Assembly (NCBI GenBank): GCA_934162195.1
Contig: CAKPHO010000002.1
Span: forward strand, 13,689-77,688
Origin: an uncultured Bacilli bacterium
Lineage (GTDB): Bacteria > Bacillota_I > Bacilli_A > RF39 > UBA660
Direction of reading: 5' to 3'
Length of the DNA stretch: 64,000 bases
Shown: positions 5,929 to 63,258 of the stretch, piece after piece
How the letters are laid out: every line of letters begins with the position of its first letter
Numbering within the stretch: the stretch's first letter is position 1
The notes under the pieces: generated by a model
The model's database searches: none
Told to the model about the DNA's origin: nothing
The model's input: the letters and a program-made list of their open reading frames with translations, nothing else
Made by a program: the position numbers and the translations under genes

Positions 5929-6425
5929 TGAAAAAATTTACAAGATTAACAATGTTACTAGCACTTAGTGTAGTATTAAATATTATAGAAAGTTTTATAC
6001 CACTCTTTAATGGTAATATTCCAGGATTAAAGTTAGGTCTTGCTAATATTATTATTTTAATAGTTTTATATATGTTTTCTTTTAAAGATGCTTTATATGT
6101 ATCACTACTTAGAATAATATTAGTAGGTATTTTAAGAACAGGTTTATTTAGTATGACCTTCTTCTTTTCATTAGGGGGAGCTTTCCTTAGCTTGTGTTCT
6201 ATGTTTATAGCTAAGAAGACTAAACTCTCTATTATAGGTGTAAGTATTGTAGGCTCTATCTTTCACAGTATAGGACAAATTTTAGTTGCAATTCTAATTA
6301 TAAAAAATAGGTACATAATTTATTATGTACCTTGGTTACTTTTATTTTCTATTCCTACAGGTATATTAGTAGGATTTACAAGCAAGACTATTTTAAATAA
6401 CTTGGAGAATAGAAAAATAATATAA
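5925..6425 (+). CDS. Gx transporter family protein (heptaprenyl diphosphate synthase component I-like)
   Basis: 166-aa five-TM protein beginning LALSVVLNIIESFIPL. The context is the usual ApbE / NusG_II / Gx trio, and the start overlaps the upstream stop (ATGATG). Confidence 0.65.
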   Translation: MMKKFTRLTMLLALSVVLNIIESFIPLFNGNIPGLKLGLANIIILIVLYMFSFKDALYVSLLRIILVGILRTGLFSMTFFFSLGGAFLSLCSMFIAKKTKLSIIGVSIVGSIFHSIGQILVAILIIKNRYIIYYVPWLLLFSIPTGILVGFTSKTILNNLENRKII

Positions 6426-6485
6426 AGATACTTGCAAACTGGATGACAATGATGTATACTTAGTACAGTAAAGGACAGTGGTAGT

Positions 6486-6545
6486 ATGGTTAAAGTAGCT
6501 TTGAAAATAATAGCAAAAGCACCAACCTGGGGGGGGGTTATTTAA
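6486..6545 (+). CDS. candidate 19-codon leader peptide MVKVALKIIAKAPTWGGVI
   Basis: AAAGGA lies 10 nt upstream of the ATG. The paralogous copy at 31989-32048 has the same length and frame and the same MVK...PTWGGVI ends, although the middle differs at the nucleotide level. Confidence 0.45.
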   Translation: MVKVALKIIAKAPTWGGVI

Positions 6546-6575
6546 TCATACTATAGTATTAAATGATAAAGAAAA

Positions 6576-6624
6576 CACAAAGTTTCTAGACTTTTTAGTA
6601 GTCTAGATTTCTTTGTGCTTTTTT
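6576..6624 (+). terminator. intrinsic terminator between the uORF and the pilin gene
   Basis: CACAAAG-TTT-CTAGACT / AGTCTAG-ATT?TTT-CTTTGTG long hairpin with a 3x3 internal loop, followed by CTTTTTTG. It is conserved in copy 2. Confidence 0.65.
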
Positions 6625-6674
6625 GTTGTACCTTTACAAAAAAAGTAAATCTAAATAAAAGAAGGAGGAAGATT

Positions 6675-7574
6675 ATGAAATTAAAAAATAAATACGGATT
6701 TACACTTATTGAATTACTAGCGGTAATAGTAGTATTAGCAATAATCGCACTAATCGCAACACCAATAGTAATGAATACAATTAAGAATGCGAAGAAAGGA
6801 GCGGCTGAAAGAAGTGCGGATAGCTATGTTAAACAAGTAGAAGTAGCAGTAGCAGAAGAACGACTAAATAAAAATGAAGTACCAGAAGGCGAATATCAAA
6901 TAACAAGTGATGGAAATCTATGTAGAGATAAAAGTGCAAGTTGTTCAGATGAAGAAAAAATAAAAATTGAAATGAGCGGAACAAAACCAACATCAGGGAA
7001 AATAAAGATAACAAATGGAAGTGTTGATCAAACATCATCAAGTATGACAATAGGAGATTATACTGTTTCATATAATTCTACTAAAAAAACATATGAAGCA
7101 ACAGAGAAAGGGAATACAACTCCTGATACACAATCAACAACAGTAGTGTATAGATGGGCACCAGATACTATAGAAATAGGTGATACAATAAATCCAAGTG
7201 ATTATACAAAAGATGCAAGTACATTAGGAAAAAGTAATTATTTAAAACATGTATTAGATAAAGATGATAAAGTAATAGAATCATATGCATGTGTTATATT
7301 TAATAGTAAAGAATATTGTTTAAGAGGAGGGAACTCATCTTTCTATGGATATGCAGAAAATGAAGCAGATTATACAGGAAATGCGTTAATATTAAAACAA
7401 ATAAAAGATGCAAAAATAGAGGGAATAAGCTGCTACTTCAATGCTAGCAACTGTAACTGCCATGATGGCTCCGTTAGTTTGAATGTGAATTCGTATGGTG
7501 ACGTTAGTGCGGGCGATGTTGATGGCGGCTGCTCCGTCGGTGGTGATGGTAGTTCGTATTGCGTAAGCGCGTAG
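6675..7574 (+). CDS. modular type IV pilin-like protein A (class III signal peptide plus C-terminal Cys/Gly-rich domain)
   Basis: MKLKNKYG/FTLIELLAVIVVLAIIALIATP has the prepilin cleavage motif with Glu at +5. RBS GAAGGAGGA precedes ATG 6675, so the ORF-track start at 6615 is rejected. The first ~145 aa are paralogous to the pilin at 32257. Confidence 0.85.
   Translation: MKLKNKYGFTLIELLAVIVVLAIIALIATPIVMNTIKNAKKGAAERSADSYVKQVEVAVAEERLNKNEVPEGEYQITSDGNLCRDKSASCSDEEKIKIEMSGTKPTSGKIKITNGSVDQTSSSMTIGDYTVSYNSTKKTYEATEKGNTTPDTQSTTVVYRWAPDTIEIGDTINPSDYTKDASTLGKSNYLKHVLDKDDKVIESYACVIFNSKEYCLRGGNSSFYGYAENEADYTGNALILKQIKDAKIEGISCYFNASNCNCHDGSVSLNVNSYGDVSAGDVDGGCSVGGDGSSYCVSA
7428..7574 (+). other. 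adenine-avoiding, codon-phased segment at the pilin A C-terminus (candidate DGR variable region)
   Basis: Of 48 codons, 47 end in C, T or G (a single GTA). GC is ~50% by hand count against ~30% upstream. Locally rare codons are used (GCG, TCG, GTG), and the boundary at ~7428 is sharp. Confidence 0.45.
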
Positions 7575-29781: not shown

Positions 29782-31914
29782 ATGAAAAAAGTATTTGAAA
29801 TGGATTTTAGAGGAAGAAAAATAGTTGTTGAAAATGGAGAAATGGCTAAACAGGCAAATGGTGCAGTTTTAGTTAGATATGGTGATACTGTAGTACTATC
29901 TACAGCAGTTGTAAAAAAAGAAGCAAATATTTTATCTGACTTTTTTCCTTTGATGGTAATATATCAAGAAAAATTATATTCAGTTGGAAAGATTCCAGGG
30001 GGATTTATAAAAAGAGAGGGAAGACCAACGGATGCGGCTACACTTGCTGCGCGTATGATTGATCGTCCTATGCGCCCAATGTTTAGAGAAGATTTTAAAA
30101 ATGAGGTTCAAATTGTTAATACAGTATTATCTGTAGATACTGATAATTCACCTGAATTAACAGCAATGTTAGGCTCTTCTCTAGCAGTAGGAATTAGTGA
30201 AATACCTTTTGATGGACCAATTGCTGGTGTTAAAGTAGGGCATGTTAATGGAGAATTTATTATTAACCCAACTCCTGCTGAACTAGAATTATCTGATATC
30301 GATTTAACTGTTGCCGGAACTAAAGACGCTATTAATATGGTAGAAGCAGGAGCTAAACAAGTATCAGAAGATTTAATGTTAGAAGCATTAATGTTTGGTC
30401 ATGAAGCAATTAAAGAACTTGTTGAATTCCAAGAAAAAATCATTGCTGAAATAGGCGAAGAAGACATGGAATATGAAAAACTAGAGATAACTTCTGAATT
30501 CAAAAAAGAAATTAGAGATCTAGTTGAAGATAAATTAAATAAAGCTATGCGTATTAAAGAAAAGTTAGAAAAATATGCAGCTATAGATAATGCTAAAGAA
30601 GAAGTTGTAGAAAAATATCGTTTAGAATATGAAGATAAAATAAAAGAAAAAGAACTAAACGAATTATTAACTAAAGTTAAATTAGTACTTGAAGAAATAG
30701 AATATGAAATATTTAGATGTATAGTAGTTAAAGAACATACTCGTGCAGATGGACGAGCTATGACAGAAATTAGACCATTATCAACTGATATTGATATTCT
30801 ACCACGTACTCATGGTTCAGCGTTATTTACAAGAGGAGAAACACAAGCTTTAGCAATTACAACACTTGGAGCTTTAGGTGAACACCAAATATTAGATGGT
30901 CTTTCTTTAGAAGCCGAAAAGAGATTTATGTTACATTACAACTTCCCAGCATTCTCAGTAGGAGAAACAGGAAGATATGGAGCTCCTGGTAGAAGAGAAA
31001 TTGGACATGGAGCATTAGGAGAAAGAGCTTTACTTCAAGTAATGCCAAGTGAAGATGAATTCCCTTACACTGTTCGTGTTGTATCAGAAGTATTAGAAAG
31101 TAATGGTTCATCAAGCCAGGCAACGATTTGTGCTGGATGTATGAGTTTAATGGCTGCTGGTGTTCCTATTAAAGCCCCAGTTGCTGGTATAGCTATGGGA
31201 TTAATTACTGATGGTGATGATTATACTATTCTTACTGATATTCAAGGTATGGAAGATCATTTAGGAGATATGGATTTTAAAGTGGCAGGTACAAGAGATG
31301 GTATTTGTGCTTTACAAATGGATATCAAAATTAAAGGTATTACTAAACAGATTTTAAAAGAAGCTTTAGCTCAAGCAAAAGCAGCTCGTATGGAAATTCT
31401 TGATGTTATAGAAGCTCAAATAAAAGAACCAAGAAAAGAAGTTAGTAAGTATGCACCTAAAACTTTAACATTTACAATTGATCCAAATAAAATTAAAGAT
31501 GTTATTGGTAAAGGTGGAGAAACAATTACAAACATCATTCTTGAAGCTTCAAATGTAACAGCAGTAACAGATATGAATGCCGTTAAAGTTGATTTAGAAG
31601 ATGATGGTAGAGTAATTATTTATCACTCTGATAAAGAGATAATTGAAAGAACTGCTCAAATGATTAAAGATATTGTTCGTGAAGTAGAAGATGGCAAAGT
31701 TTATACTGGTAAAGTAGTAAAAGTAGAGGACTTTGGATGCTTTGTAGAATTATGGCCTGGATGTGAAGGATTAGTACATGTTTCACAACTTGCTAATGAA
31801 AGAGTAGAAAAACCTAGTGATGTTGTTAAAGTAGGGGACGAAATAATAGTTAAGTCATTAGGATATGATAAAAAAGGAAGATTAAATCTTTCTCGTAAAG
31901 AAGCTTTAAAATAG
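29782..31914 (+). CDS. pnp: polyribonucleotide nucleotidyltransferase (PNPase)
   Basis: Two RNase PH domains, a KH domain (VIGKGGETI) and an S1 domain ([15 protein letters not shown]). The rpsO-pnp order is conserved. Confidence 0.95.
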
Positions 31915-31988
31915 AAGCTTTATGGAAAAAACTACTTGTCAATATATCTAAAAAATGATACTATTGATATAGTAAAGGTAGTGATAGT

Positions 31989-32048
31989 ATGGTTAAAGAG
32001 ATAAATATGAAACTAGCTCAAAATCCAACCTGGGGGGGGGTTATTTAA
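31989..32048 (+). CDS. candidate 19-codon leader peptide MVKEINMKLAQNPTWGGVI
   Basis: Same length, frame, RBS spacing and MVK/PTWGGVI termini as 6486-6545. The G9 tract at 32032-32040 encodes W-G-G. Confidence 0.45.
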   Translation: MVKEINMKLAQNPTWGGVI

Positions 32049-32078: not shown

Positions 32079-32125
32079 CACAAAGTTTCTAGACTTTTTG
32101 ATAGTCTAGATTTCTTTGTGTTTTT
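32079..32125 (+). terminator. intrinsic terminator between the uORF and the pilin gene
   Basis: Same hairpin arms as 6576-6617, followed by TTTTTAT. Confidence 0.6.
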
Positions 32126-32256
32126 ATGTGTACCTTTATAAGAAAGGGGTTGTTGTATAAATACATAAATATAGATAAAACATGTATTATGACTAGATGT
32201 TTATAAGAAATAAAACAAGGTATAATTAAAGTATAAAGTAAATAAGGAGGTATAGT

Positions 32257-33417
32257 ATGAAAAAGAAAGGATTTACTTTAATAGAATTACTAGCGGTAAT
32301 AGTAGTATTAGCAATAATAGCACTAATTGCAACACCAATAGTAATGAATACGATAAAAAGTGCAAAGAAAGGAGCTGCAGAAAGATCTGCGGATAGTTAT
32401 ATTGGAGCCGTAGAAACAGCAGTTGCAACAGCAAAATTAGATGGTAAAGATATACCAGATGGAACATACCAAATAGATAGTGATGGTAATTTAACAGGAG
32501 AAGGGTTACCAGATGGTAAATTAACAATAGATATGAAAGGAAATAAGCCAACAGGAGGAACAATAACAATAAAGAATGGACAAGTAACAAATGATTCAGA
32601 GATGACTATTGGAGATTATGATGTTAAATATAATGAAGATAACAATAAATATGAAGCAACCAAGTTAAAAACATATATAAATGGAGAGGTAGTATATTTT
32701 AATGTAACAACAGGAGAAAAATGTACATCATCAGATTATACAGAAACACAAAGTAATACAGGAACAAATAGGGGCTGTATGAAATTTTATGCCTTTAATG
32801 ATGATGGAGGAAATACAGTAAACTTAATATTGGATCACAATACAACAGCAACTGTAGCATGGAATTCAAGTAATAGTAATACAAATGGGCCAAAAGAAGT
32901 ATTAGAACAATTAAAAAAGGATACTGAATCATGGGAAGGGACAATAACACCGGCAAATTATACAATGGATCAAACAGGACAACCAAGTAATGCAAAATAT
33001 ACAATAGATTATAGTAGTTATAAAGCAAGATTAATAACAGCTAACGAAATAGCAAAAATTACAGGAAATACTTCTTGGAACGAGAAAACTGCAAGTAACA
33101 TATTCTATTTTGATACCAATACATCAACGATAAGTTCAACATGTGCTAAAGGAAATACAAGTGGATGTTCATATAGATGGTTATATGATAGATCAAGCAC
33201 CTATTGTACAACATATGGATGTTTAAATAATGCTGATTCTGCAATGACTGGAATTGGATATTGGACAGCATCTTCTCATGTCGGCTACGTTGGCACCATC
33301 TCTAACCGTGCTTGGTACGTGAACTGCCGCGCTCACGCGAACTACGGCGGCGTTTTCGATTCGAGCAGCCTTGGCGTTCGCCCAGTTATAGAAGTATTAA
33401 AATCTAAACTTTCATAA
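32257..33417 (+). CDS. modular type IV pilin-like protein B (pilin module plus DUF1566/C-type-lectin-like C-terminal domain)
   Basis: MKKKG/FTLIELLAV prepilin motif. The C-terminal domain carries ARLITANEIAKITG, GYWTASS and GVRPVIEV, as in Lcl/DUF1566-like folds. Confidence 0.85.
   Translation: MKKKGFTLIELLAVIVVLAIIALIATPIVMNTIKSAKKGAAERSADSYIGAVETAVATAKLDGKDIPDGTYQIDSDGNLTGEGLPDGKLTIDMKGNKPTGGTITIKNGQVTNDSEMTIGDYDVKYNEDNNKYEATKLKTYINGEVVYFNVTTGEKCTSSDYTETQSNTGTNRGCMKFYAFNDDGGNTVNLILDHNTTATVAWNSSNSNTNGPKEVLEQLKKDTESWEGTITPANYTMDQTGQPSNAKYTIDYSSYKARLITANEIAKITGNTSWNEKTASNIFYFDTNTSTISSTCAKGNTSGCSYRWLYDRSSTYCTTYGCLNNADSAMTGIGYWTASSHVGYVGTISNRAWYVNCRAHANYGGVFDSSSLGVRPVIEVLKSKLS
33280..33384 (+). 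other. adenine-avoiding, codon-phased segment near the pilin B C-terminus (candidate DGR variable region)
   Basis: Of 35 codons, 34 do not end in A. GC is ~61% by hand count. All three Arg codons are CGY although AGA dominates elsewhere in the window. AAC, TAC, CAC, AGC and GGC codons are enriched. Confidence 0.5.
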
Positions 33418-39316: not shown

Positions 39317-40270
39317 ATGAAACGAGGATTTACTTTAATAGAATTGATGGCTGTTATTGTTGTTCTAGGTATATTAGCAACAATATCAATAATATCTGTA
39401 GATAAGATAATTAAAGAAAATAAAGAAGAAACATATAAGGCACAAATTGCAACAATAGAAGATGCTGCCCGTACCTGGGGAGTAAAGCATATAAAAGAAC
39501 TTCCTGATAGTAATGGTGCTATATCTGTACCACTTCTTTATTTTAAAAATGAAGGAATAATACCACAAGATTTTAAAAATCCCAAAACAAATAAACCATT
39601 TAATGATGATTTATATGTAAATATTAGTTATGAAGGCGGTATATATAAATATGAAGTTGATGAAGCAAGTGGTCTTGGAACAAATGCTAATCCAACATTA
39701 TTAAAAAGAAGATATAGTTTATGTAAATTAGTAAATGGAACAAAGGAAACGGTAGGAGCAAAATATACATGTCATTTAGATAGTGATAGAACATTCTATG
39801 TATTAGAAACAAGTAAAGATAATGTATCACTAATTATGGATAGAAACTTCACAGATGCTATTGTACCTTCCAAATTAGCGTGGTGTATAGATGGTGGAAG
39901 TGATGGTTCAACATGTAAGAGTATAAATTCGAAAGAATATGGAACACCATTAAAACATATTCAAGATATATTTGGAACGGAGGTAGAAGTAAGTATTCCA
40001 AGTCCTAATCAAATAGCTGCTGCATCTGGAAAGACATTTTCTAGTGGAGACTTAATTTCTGGCTTATCATCTTGGTTATATGATTATTTAGATGGTACAA
40101 CTCACCCAGTATCTGGAGTATTAGGCTATTGGATATCAACAACTATAGATTCTAATTCTTCAAGTGCTTATATTACCATATACACTGGAAATATGTATGG
40201 AAGCAATGTTAACTCTAGCGATGGAGGCCTTCGCCCAGTTATTACAGTTGCAAAATCACAATTACAATAA
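39317..40270 (+). CDS. modular type IV pilin-like protein C (pilin module plus DUF1566/lectin-like C-terminal domain)
   Basis: MKRG/FTLIELMAV prepilin motif. The C-terminus has PSPNQIAAASG, GYWISTT and GGLRPVITV. Codon usage is AT-rich throughout, and the uORF leader is absent. Confidence 0.85.
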   Translation: MKRGFTLIELMAVIVVLGILATISIISVDKIIKENKEETYKAQIATIEDAARTWGVKHIKELPDSNGAISVPLLYFKNEGIIPQDFKNPKTNKPFNDDLYVNISYEGGIYKYEVDEASGLGTNANPTLLKRRYSLCKLVNGTKETVGAKYTCHLDSDRTFYVLETSKDNVSLIMDRNFTDAIVPSKLAWCIDGGSDGSTCKSINSKEYGTPLKHIQDIFGTEVEVSIPSPNQIAAASGKTFSSGDLISGLSSWLYDYLDGTTHPVSGVLGYWISTTIDSNSSSAYITIYTGNMYGSNVNSSDGGLRPVITVAKSQLQ

Positions 40271-62687: not shown

Positions 62688-63258
62688 ATGATGACAAAAT
62701 ATAAATATAGCAAGAATTCAATTGCATCAGTTTTTAACGATTTAAAACTGTTTGAACAAAGTTAGCTATTATTATGAGTATATAAGAAAAAAATATGACG
62801 AAATAGAAGAAGCAAAGATTAAAATTCATGCAGAAATAGCATCTGCTTGCTTCAGACAAGCAAGTGAGTATTATAAAATTGCATCTATGGCAAGCATCAG
62901 TACAAGTTCATTACTATATTCATATGCGCTAAATAATTTGCTTAAAGGGGGGGTATGTTACTTGATAAGTTTTGATGATGAAATTCTAGATGGATTTAAG
63001 GCACATGGATTTAAAGTAGACAATGCTTTTTTAACAGATGATGCCATGAATTCTAAAGTTACAGTTATGAAGCAAAAGGTGGCTGTTCATTCGTTACTCA
63101 AACTATATAATAATGAATTAAGAAAACAGGAAATACCTTTATATAAGGTATTTCGTCATATTCCAGGAATTGAAACGTTCTATTATCACTCTTTAGGAAG
63201 TATTTCATTATTAGCAACCAGAAAAAATAAAGGCGAAAACTATTTGATAACCAAATGA
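62688..63258 (+). pseudogene. YaaC-like protein gene, apparently frameshifted near its 5-prime end
   Basis: ATG 62688 (RBS AAGGAAGTGA) opens a 25-codon frame ending at TAG 62763-62765. The long ORF from 62752 continues in the +1 frame. LLYSYALNNLLKG resembles the YaaC family core. Confidence 0.4.

Follow-up and report, generated by a model that had tools for sequence, protein, structure and literature searches.

Why would a stretch of DNA with a GC content of 26.5 % carry unbroken runs of nine guanines (G9) at two places, each of them within a short open reading frame (ORF) ahead of a type IV pilin gene? The window analyzed here consists of 64,000 nucleotides (nt) from an uncultured Bacilli bacterium (assembly GCA_934162195.1, contig CAKPHO010000002.1, positions 13,689-77,688 of the forward strand). 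Both tracts sit in paralogous leaders of about 165 nt each, which we term copies A and B. Judging from these leaders and those of relatives, we regard it as probable that the poly-G tract turns pilin expression ON and OFF heritably and at random, by slipped-strand mispairing inside a leader-peptide attenuator.

Leader anatomy and the consequences of tract length

Apart from the two G9 tracts, no run of G or C in the window reaches a length of eight. The pattern of eight consecutive G gave four overlapping matches (two loci) where 0.04 were expected, and none of 100 shuffled sequences yielded as many. The first-pass annotation of this DNA had called nine G in both leaders very unusual for an AT-rich genome, and the count bears this out. 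The remaining G runs of the window are fourteen of G5 and a single G7 (62947-62953), the longest of the others, which lies inside an ORF at 62752-63258. As in poly-G/C contingency loci, the two tracts are uninterrupted, at least 7-8 nt long and far above the expectation from base composition. The elements of copy A are the following:

6432..6460, + strand: leader promoter A, TTGCAA-17-TATACT; relatives have the consensus TTGACA-17-TATAAT at the same position
6470..6475, + strand: Shine-Dalgarno sequence AAAGGA of leader ORF A, as read in the sequence
6486..6545, + strand: leader ORF A in the G9 state, MVKVALKIIAKAPTWGGVI, from ATG 6486-6488 to TAA 6543-6545; the short, predicted OFF frame
6529-6537, + strand: G9 homopolymer of copy A, the proposed slipped-strand switch; length 8-11 in relatives
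6538..6606, + strand: continuation of the long frame in copy A (G8 or G11), LFNHTIVLNDKENTKFLDFLVV, with TAG 6604-6606 in the terminator 3' arm; predicted ON
6554..6556, + strand: TAG stop of the third frame (G7 or G10)
6576..6624, + strand: terminator (attenuator) A; outer stem CACAAAG/CUUUGUG (6576-6582 with 6611-6617), inner stem 6585-6607, U run 6619-6624
6675..7574, + strand: type IV pilin gene A, 50 nt past the terminator; it has the N-terminal methylation motif and its own GGAGG ribosome-binding site

The corresponding elements of copy B are:

31936..31964, + strand: leader promoter B, TTGTCA-17-TACTAT, preceded by TG
31989..32048, + strand: leader ORF B, MVKEINMKLAQNPTWGGVI, with the stop TAA at 32046-32048
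32032-32040, + strand: G9 homopolymer of copy B
32079..32125, + strand: terminator B; inner stem 32088-32110, long-frame TAG 32107-32109 in the 3' arm
32257..33417, + strand: type IV pilin gene B, likewise with the N-terminal methylation motif

In each window copy the leader ORF has 19 codons, and the tract is read TGG GGG GGG. The short-frame TAA lies 30 nt upstream of the base of the terminator hairpin, in agreement with the earlier estimate of about 30 nt. Tract length was then edited in silico in both copies, with the same outcome for copy B as for copy A. G8 gave a peptide of 39 and G11 a peptide of 40 amino acids, both ending at the TAG at 6604-6606 in the terminator 3' arm, and with G7 or G10 the ORF ended at the TAG at 6554-6556, which for G10 is 19 nt before the hairpin. 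The edits match what the first-pass annotation had read from the letters, namely that the G8 frame is free of stops in both copies until a TAG in the 3' arm of the terminator and that the G10 ORF ends soon after the tract. Three of its details had to be corrected: the extended peptide has 39 (G8) or 40 (G11) amino acids and not 42, the G8 frame adds 22 sense codons after GGG GGG and not 23, and a -1 ribosomal slip would yield the G10 frame instead of the G8 frame. To enter the long frame, one G must be lost from the DNA or RNA, or the ribosome must shift by +1 (or -2).

In the mechanism that we propose, a strong promoter, a short leader ORF that is translated and an intrinsic terminator would lie ahead of each pilin gene. 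With the tract set to the long frame, ribosomes would pass through the terminator's 5' arm and loop, the hairpin would be blocked behind RNA polymerase and the pilin would be ON. With G9 or G10, release of the ribosome 30 or 19 nt ahead of the hairpin would let the terminator form, and the pilin would be OFF or low. Slipped-strand mispairing in replication would gain or lose a G and thereby toggle each pilin gene heritably and at random, and with several cassettes per genome a population would carry many combinations of pilin expression. Frequent slippage within a population and control of termination by the reading frame are the two steps of this scheme that we infer.

Tract length and reading frame in related leaders

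Thirty-five distinct leader copies were collected from metagenome-assembled genomes (MAGs) of related uncultured gut Bacilli and from metagenomes. They came from contigs encoding pilin homologues and from pattern scans of species-representative genomes and of Joint Genome Institute (JGI) metagenomes; relatives are labelled L0xx. Homologues of the pilin number in the thousands in gut metagenomes. Every leader copy precedes a type IV pilin gene, mostly behind the consensus promoter named above, and the Shine-Dalgarno sequence (AAAGG, AAGGG or AAAAGG) and the ATG are kept across all aligned copies. Up to eight copies are present per genome (eight in one MAG named 'uncultured Bacilli bacterium' and three in 'uncultured Tenericutes bacterium UMGS688'). 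These counts are probably underestimates, since multi-copy leaders break short-read assemblies. The public contigs L048, L049, L028 and L039 end within the conserved part of the leader; we rejected contig ends near the tract (L048, L049) as a sign of tract heterogeneity, because breakage at the multi-copy leader explains them. With the NDK neighbor of pilin B as query, only the same strain was returned; the pilin of L024, a G8 allele, led to the same contig or to matches without a leader.

For comparison, the linker was defined as the stretch from CAACC to the 3' arm of a helix, P1, described below (TTTAAT...). The linkers fall into the following types:

T G9 TTA: 18 copies, short frame
Interrupted linkers G7AG-TTA, TGGTGGGGTA and G8AGG-TATA: 3 copies, short frame
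G8 TTA: 2 copies, long frame
G11 TTA: 1 copy, long frame
G10 TATA: 2 copies, long frame
G10 TTA, G9 TTAA and G8 TA: 1 copy each (3), third frame
G-less 9-nt linkers of five different sequences: 6 copies, long frame

Uninterrupted tracts thus occur in 26 of the 35 copies (three G8, nineteen G9, three G10 and one G11), and the frame is short in 21 copies, long in 11 and third in three (L023, L028 and L052/L055). The G-less linkers TTGTTATTG, TTGGTATTG, TGGAGGAGA, TGGGTGATA and TTGGGAATA are each 9 nt long, and each sets the long frame. In L039, the linker TGGAGGAGA places a strong Shine-Dalgarno-like GGAGGAG where the G run would be, again in the long frame. Beyond slippage, the abundance of G at the tract site may matter, for example in anti-Shine-Dalgarno pairing or ribosome pausing.

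Tract length also differs between near-identical strains. An identical pilin allele of 307 amino acids was found in seven samples, with G10 in L052 and L055 and G9 in L053, L054, L056, L057 and L058. L052 (G10) and L054 (G9) are 99.1 % identical over 2,924 nt with the G tract as their sole indel, and in this single comparison ten A/T runs of 7-8 nt were unchanged. As G9 and G10 were each recovered in two independent assemblies, the difference is not assembly noise. At the window's own chromosomal locus, which follows the Hpre_diP_synt_I gene, the tract is G8 in L024 and G9 in L013, L025 and L047, and L046 carries a G-less long-frame linker.

Behind the identical upstream protein of this locus, strains differ in their leader-plus-pilin cassettes or have mosaic leaders. 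L047 is the window sequence through G9 and then diverges in the terminator (window 6430-6640 compared). The mosaic differences suggest that cassettes are exchanged by recombination, either between paralogs or between strains. In another relative (L063, 1940-2309), a full-length mutS gene (851 amino acids) immediately follows the pilin cassette; given this mutS, a missing mismatch repair system cannot be claimed as the driver of tract instability.

Homopolymers are error-prone and subpopulations are invisible in consensus assemblies, so that the length differences might be dismissed as neutral noise or homopolymer assembly error, with the pilin controlled elsewhere, for instance from an internal TATAAT of the B-type leaders, where a second promoter is possible. 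We find this very hard to believe. G9 and G10 were each reproduced as described, and uninterrupted G8-G11 tracts are present in 26/35 copies of a lineage with 26.5 % GC that is otherwise nearly without G runs. Moreover, A-type copies, window copy A included, have no promoter-like site past the terminator; none was found between terminator A and the ATG of pilin A. Between terminator and pilin start, the B-type leaders contain an additional segment of about 120 nt (window 32126-32256, with TATAAT at 32221-32226) which A-type leaders lack. This segment contains GGGTATAATTAAA and TGTATTATGACTAGATGTTTATAA, is conserved in copies from several genomes (L002, L007, L010, L012, L018, L021 and L052-58), and might act as a second promoter or as another regulatory element.

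The long frame is kept open in the family. From the P1 3' arm to the inner 5' arm of the terminator (48 or 51 nt), it contains no stop in 25 unique full-length copies, compared with totals of 88 and 62 for the remaining two frames over the same stretch. The variable middle of the ORF is 24, 27 or 39 nt long and shifts in length only by multiples of three; indels in the long-frame stretch and in the 5' variable part measure 3 or 12 nt. The long frame ends in the loop or 3' arm of the terminator in all copies but one, in which its stop is past the terminator. Wherever the frame is continuous in relatives, ORFs of 34-38 amino acids are listed by public gene callers. The variants show no codon-position bias (16/19/19 and 12/13/14 in the two ORF halves), and non-synonymous exceed synonymous changes (44:10 and 27:12). 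On these grounds conservation at the peptide level was rejected: the open frame is kept and the peptide is not. An unconserved peptide in an open frame is what would be predicted for a purely regulatory ORF, the translation of which matters and the product of which does not.

The anatomy of the leaders, the conservation of long frame and terminator, and the polymorphism of tract length between copies and between near-identical strains are shown here. The first-pass annotation had suggested an ON/OFF switch of the pilin by translation-coupled antitermination. This suggestion is supported by the G8-G11 variation across copies and strains, by the long frame that is stop-free in 25/25 copies, by the G-less linkers in the long frame, and by the precedent of Streptococcus gallolyticus discussed below.

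Several observations weigh against a heritable switch. The G9TTA linker is dominant (18/35), and the interrupted linkers of L007, L010 and L042 keep the short frame together with AUU-UAA, which hints that the short state is perhaps itself selected and not simply OFF. The window allele is G9 in every independent assembly found (L043, L045, L047 and L048), with no switching at the consensus level. A test for the absence of stops that considers substitutions only is weak (P = 0.17 and 0.15), and 44 non-synonymous stand against 10 synonymous changes. Copy B, given its extra segment with TATAAT, may not depend wholly on read-through. Finally, Bacilli often uncouple transcription and translation.

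Both pilin genes of the window are solitary amid housekeeping genes. The upstream operons (apbE / NusG_II / transporter; pnp) have no terminator before the leader promoters (6425-6432; 31914-31936), and the leader terminator may also halt transcripts that arrive from upstream and shield the pilin genes from them. Directly past RNase J, at 39318-40270, lies a third pilin-like gene (MKRGFTLIELMAVIVVL...), which has neither leader nor G tract nor terminator and presumably encodes a differently regulated or minor pilin.

Leader RNA structure and possible recoding

Both leaders fold far better than shuffled sequences (z = -4.8 for A and -4.7 for B). A helix of 14 bp, P1, joins the start-codon region to the stop region, and the terminator follows it. 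The arms of P1 in copy A are:

6481..6494, + strand: P1 5' arm, GUAGUAUGGUUAAA, containing the leader AUG
6541..6554, + strand: P1 3' arm, UUUAAUCAUACUAU, containing the short-frame UAA and the first long-frame codons UUU AAU CAU

All cells of P1 are paired in 24 sequences, and its five variable positions are one-sided, wobble-compatible and retain pairing, a conservation that is limited by the fact that the search pattern used to collect the copies mostly fixed the 5' arm. The terminator shows compensatory changes in relatives. P1 probably restricts translation of the leader ORF to the co-transcriptional window. When the leader was folded with its 5' part removed, no competing antiterminator helix was found and the terminator still formed, and a trp-style model of alternative hairpins was rejected for this reason. 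As there is no competing fold, ribosome occupancy is the only evident way to block termination. A P2 hairpin in the variable part was not relied on, since only 72 % of its cells are paired, and P3 has no fixed register. Comparison with Rfam 15 gave no match at the gathering score and chance-level hits only up to E = 10. A riboswitch or other known RNA family was rejected, as nothing relevant was present in Rfam.

The same fold could be read as a structured RNA in which the small ORF is incidental and P1, P2 and P3 form a three-way junction that binds a ligand, a protein or a small RNA (sRNA). The G run would then serve for strand pairing with CCAACC or as the target of a C/U-rich sRNA, like the G-repeat of Helicobacter pylori tlpB with RepG. 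The z-scores, the pairing of P1 in 24 sequences with 3'-arm changes that keep pairing and mostly alter the amino acid, and conservation at the nucleotide rather than the peptide level are in line with such a role. Nevertheless we consider it unlikely. There is no Rfam match even at E = 10, P2 and P3 are as ill-defined as stated, no antiterminator alternative exists for a ligand to select, and a search of both strands of the window revealed no C-rich partner. In addition, the Shine-Dalgarno sequence, the AUG, the indels in multiples of three, the stop-free frames and the 9-nt G-less linkers indicate translation.

If the leader is translated, the switch could still reside at the level of RNA or ribosome, with G9 as a fixed functional state and pilin expression that is graded, possibly regulated and not heritable. 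A set fraction of transcripts would enter the long frame when the polymerase slips on the C9 template, or a set fraction of ribosomes would do so by shifting +1 on GGG GGG or, as in prfB, at AUU UAA U, where the G run would act as an upstream Shine-Dalgarno-like stimulator. Such a switch would account for G9TTA in 18/35 copies and in all assemblies of the window strain and for the short frame ending in AUU UAA that is retained by the interrupted linkers of L042 (G7AG), L007 and L010. The order of a G-rich stretch, 2-3 nt, AUU UAA U and UUU AAU also resembles AGGGGG UAU CUU UGA C of prfB, and GGG is a rare codon (7.6 % of Gly codons), with the GGG-GGG dicodon absent from 17,036 codons. However, 11 copies are in the long and three in the third frame, so that the zero-frame stop defining programmed shifts is not kept. 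A Shine-Dalgarno-like stimulator requires 5-6 G and not an unbroken G8-G11, re-pairing of tRNA-Ile from AUU to UUU is poor, and polymerase slippage is documented chiefly on A/T runs. Taken together, we judge a switch of this kind improbable.

Still more doubtful is a reading of G9 as a programmed recoding site at which a regulated, +1-shifted fraction of ribosomes or transcripts overrides the terminator. In this reading, to which we give little credence, the run would be a slippery GGG-GGG or would stimulate shifting like an internal Shine-Dalgarno sequence, and the shift would take place either on the run itself or at AUU UAA U. Were recoding to take place, pilin transcription would report translation-termination or Gly-tRNA status, and this would be the first programmed frameshifting wired directly to transcription attenuation.

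The first-pass annotation had also offered a programmed pause at the rare GGG-GGG codons, which would time the ribosome against RNA polymerase and make tract length irrelevant. The scarcity of GGG among Gly codons and the lack of any other GGG-GGG in the window would suit a pause. Yet it is not needed, because G-less members of the family keep the entire design of upstream ORF (uORF) and terminator without GGG. Furthermore, in a frame that ends 30 nt short of the hairpin, a stall 40 nt ahead of it could not alone keep it from forming. We therefore hold it to be extremely unlikely.

Comparison with known systems

In Clostridioides difficile, a c-di-GMP-II riboswitch in a 5' leader with terminator controls the type IV pilin gene pilA1. 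The slipped-strand switch proposed here likewise belongs to a Gram-positive gut bacterium and has a 5' leader and terminator before a type IV pilin gene. Unlike pilA1, the leaders contain no detectable riboswitch aptamer, and control is proposed to be exerted by a translated uORF.

The gene for release factor RF2, prfB, is expressed by a programmed +1 frameshift. Common to prfB and the leaders are a G-rich, Shine-Dalgarno-like stretch 2-3 nt before XUU, an in-frame stop as the next codon and UUU in the +1 frame. In the leaders, in contrast, AUU replaces CUU, the stop is UAA, and a +1 shift is hypothetical. The zero-frame stop is not conserved in the family either: 11/35 copies are in the long and 3/35 in the third frame, while an in-frame stop conserved in all members would be expected of a prfB-type site.

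Leader-peptide attenuators are known from the trp and his operons of Escherichia coli, and in E. coli pyrBI the ribosome follows the polymerase through the attenuator. In all of these, as in the mechanism suggested for the pilin leaders, translation of a leader ORF over or abutting an intrinsic terminator decides on read-through, and a hairpin lies upstream. The pilin leaders differ from the E. coli attenuators in having neither regulatory codons nor an antiterminator hairpin, and their input would be the reading frame set by the genotype rather than tRNA charging or nucleotide pools. Attenuation of trp is discussed alongside the S. gallolyticus system (PMC3894217).

With respect to the repeat itself, the leaders resemble the poly-G/C contingency loci of Campylobacter jejuni in tracts of G8-G11 within an AT-rich genome, a modal length of nine, an association with surface structures and length differences from strain to strain. 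Neisseria pilC and opc are comparable poly-G/C contingency loci. In C. jejuni and Neisseria the tracts lie in the structural gene or in the promoter spacer and affect protein truncation or promoter strength. Here, the tract is found in a regulatory uORF and would act via transcription termination. For C. jejuni contingency tracts the modal length is nine, with G8 mutating mainly by insertion and G11 by deletion (Bayliss 2012, PMC3401435).

The closest functional parallel in design is found at the pil1 and pil3 loci of S. gallolyticus, where genetics has shown that the number of GCAGA repeats sets how long the leader peptide is (Danne 2014, PMC3894217). A peptide ending at least 28 nt before the hairpin results in low piliation and one ending within or beyond it in high piliation (PMC3894217). 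Literature searches returned no example of leader-peptide/terminator phase variation other than pil1/pil3, which makes it so far a one-species case. The pilin leaders have the same succession of a promoter, a translatable leader ORF with a slippage-prone, length-variable repeat, an intrinsic terminator and pilus genes. The short-frame stop is 39 bp from the hairpin in S. gallolyticus and 30 nt here, at least 28 nt in both, and in both a different repeat number gives a longer peptide with its stop within or beyond the hairpin. The device is also present at more than one pilus locus per genome in either case. From a switch of the pil1/pil3 type one would further expect ON and OFF cells side by side in a clonal population, with reversible switching at about 1e-3 to 1e-4 per generation, and more downstream transcription upon translation of the long peptide, in dependence on start codon and terminator.

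The S. gallolyticus mechanism is experimentally proven, and that of the leaders here is predicted from sequence. Beyond that, the repeat is a G homopolymer instead of a GCAGA pentamer, and the genes encode type IV pilins instead of sortase-assembled pili. Up to eight or more cassettes occur per genome, the hosts are uncultured gut Bacilli, and there is no sequence homology between the two systems. A 14-bp helix encloses the ORF start and stop, and some members are G-less and permanently in the long frame, features that set the leaders apart from pil1/pil3. If the mechanism holds, the leader would amount to a compact ON/OFF module that is portable and about 165 nt long, and a homopolymer difference of one base would alter the surface phenotype predicted from a metagenome. 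Pilin variation of this kind would be relevant to phage and immune evasion in the gut. The leaders look like an independent invention of the S. gallolyticus logic in widespread, small-genome gut Bacilli, and a version with a homopolymer, type IV pilins and multiple cassettes suggests that the mechanism is general and predictable from sequence.
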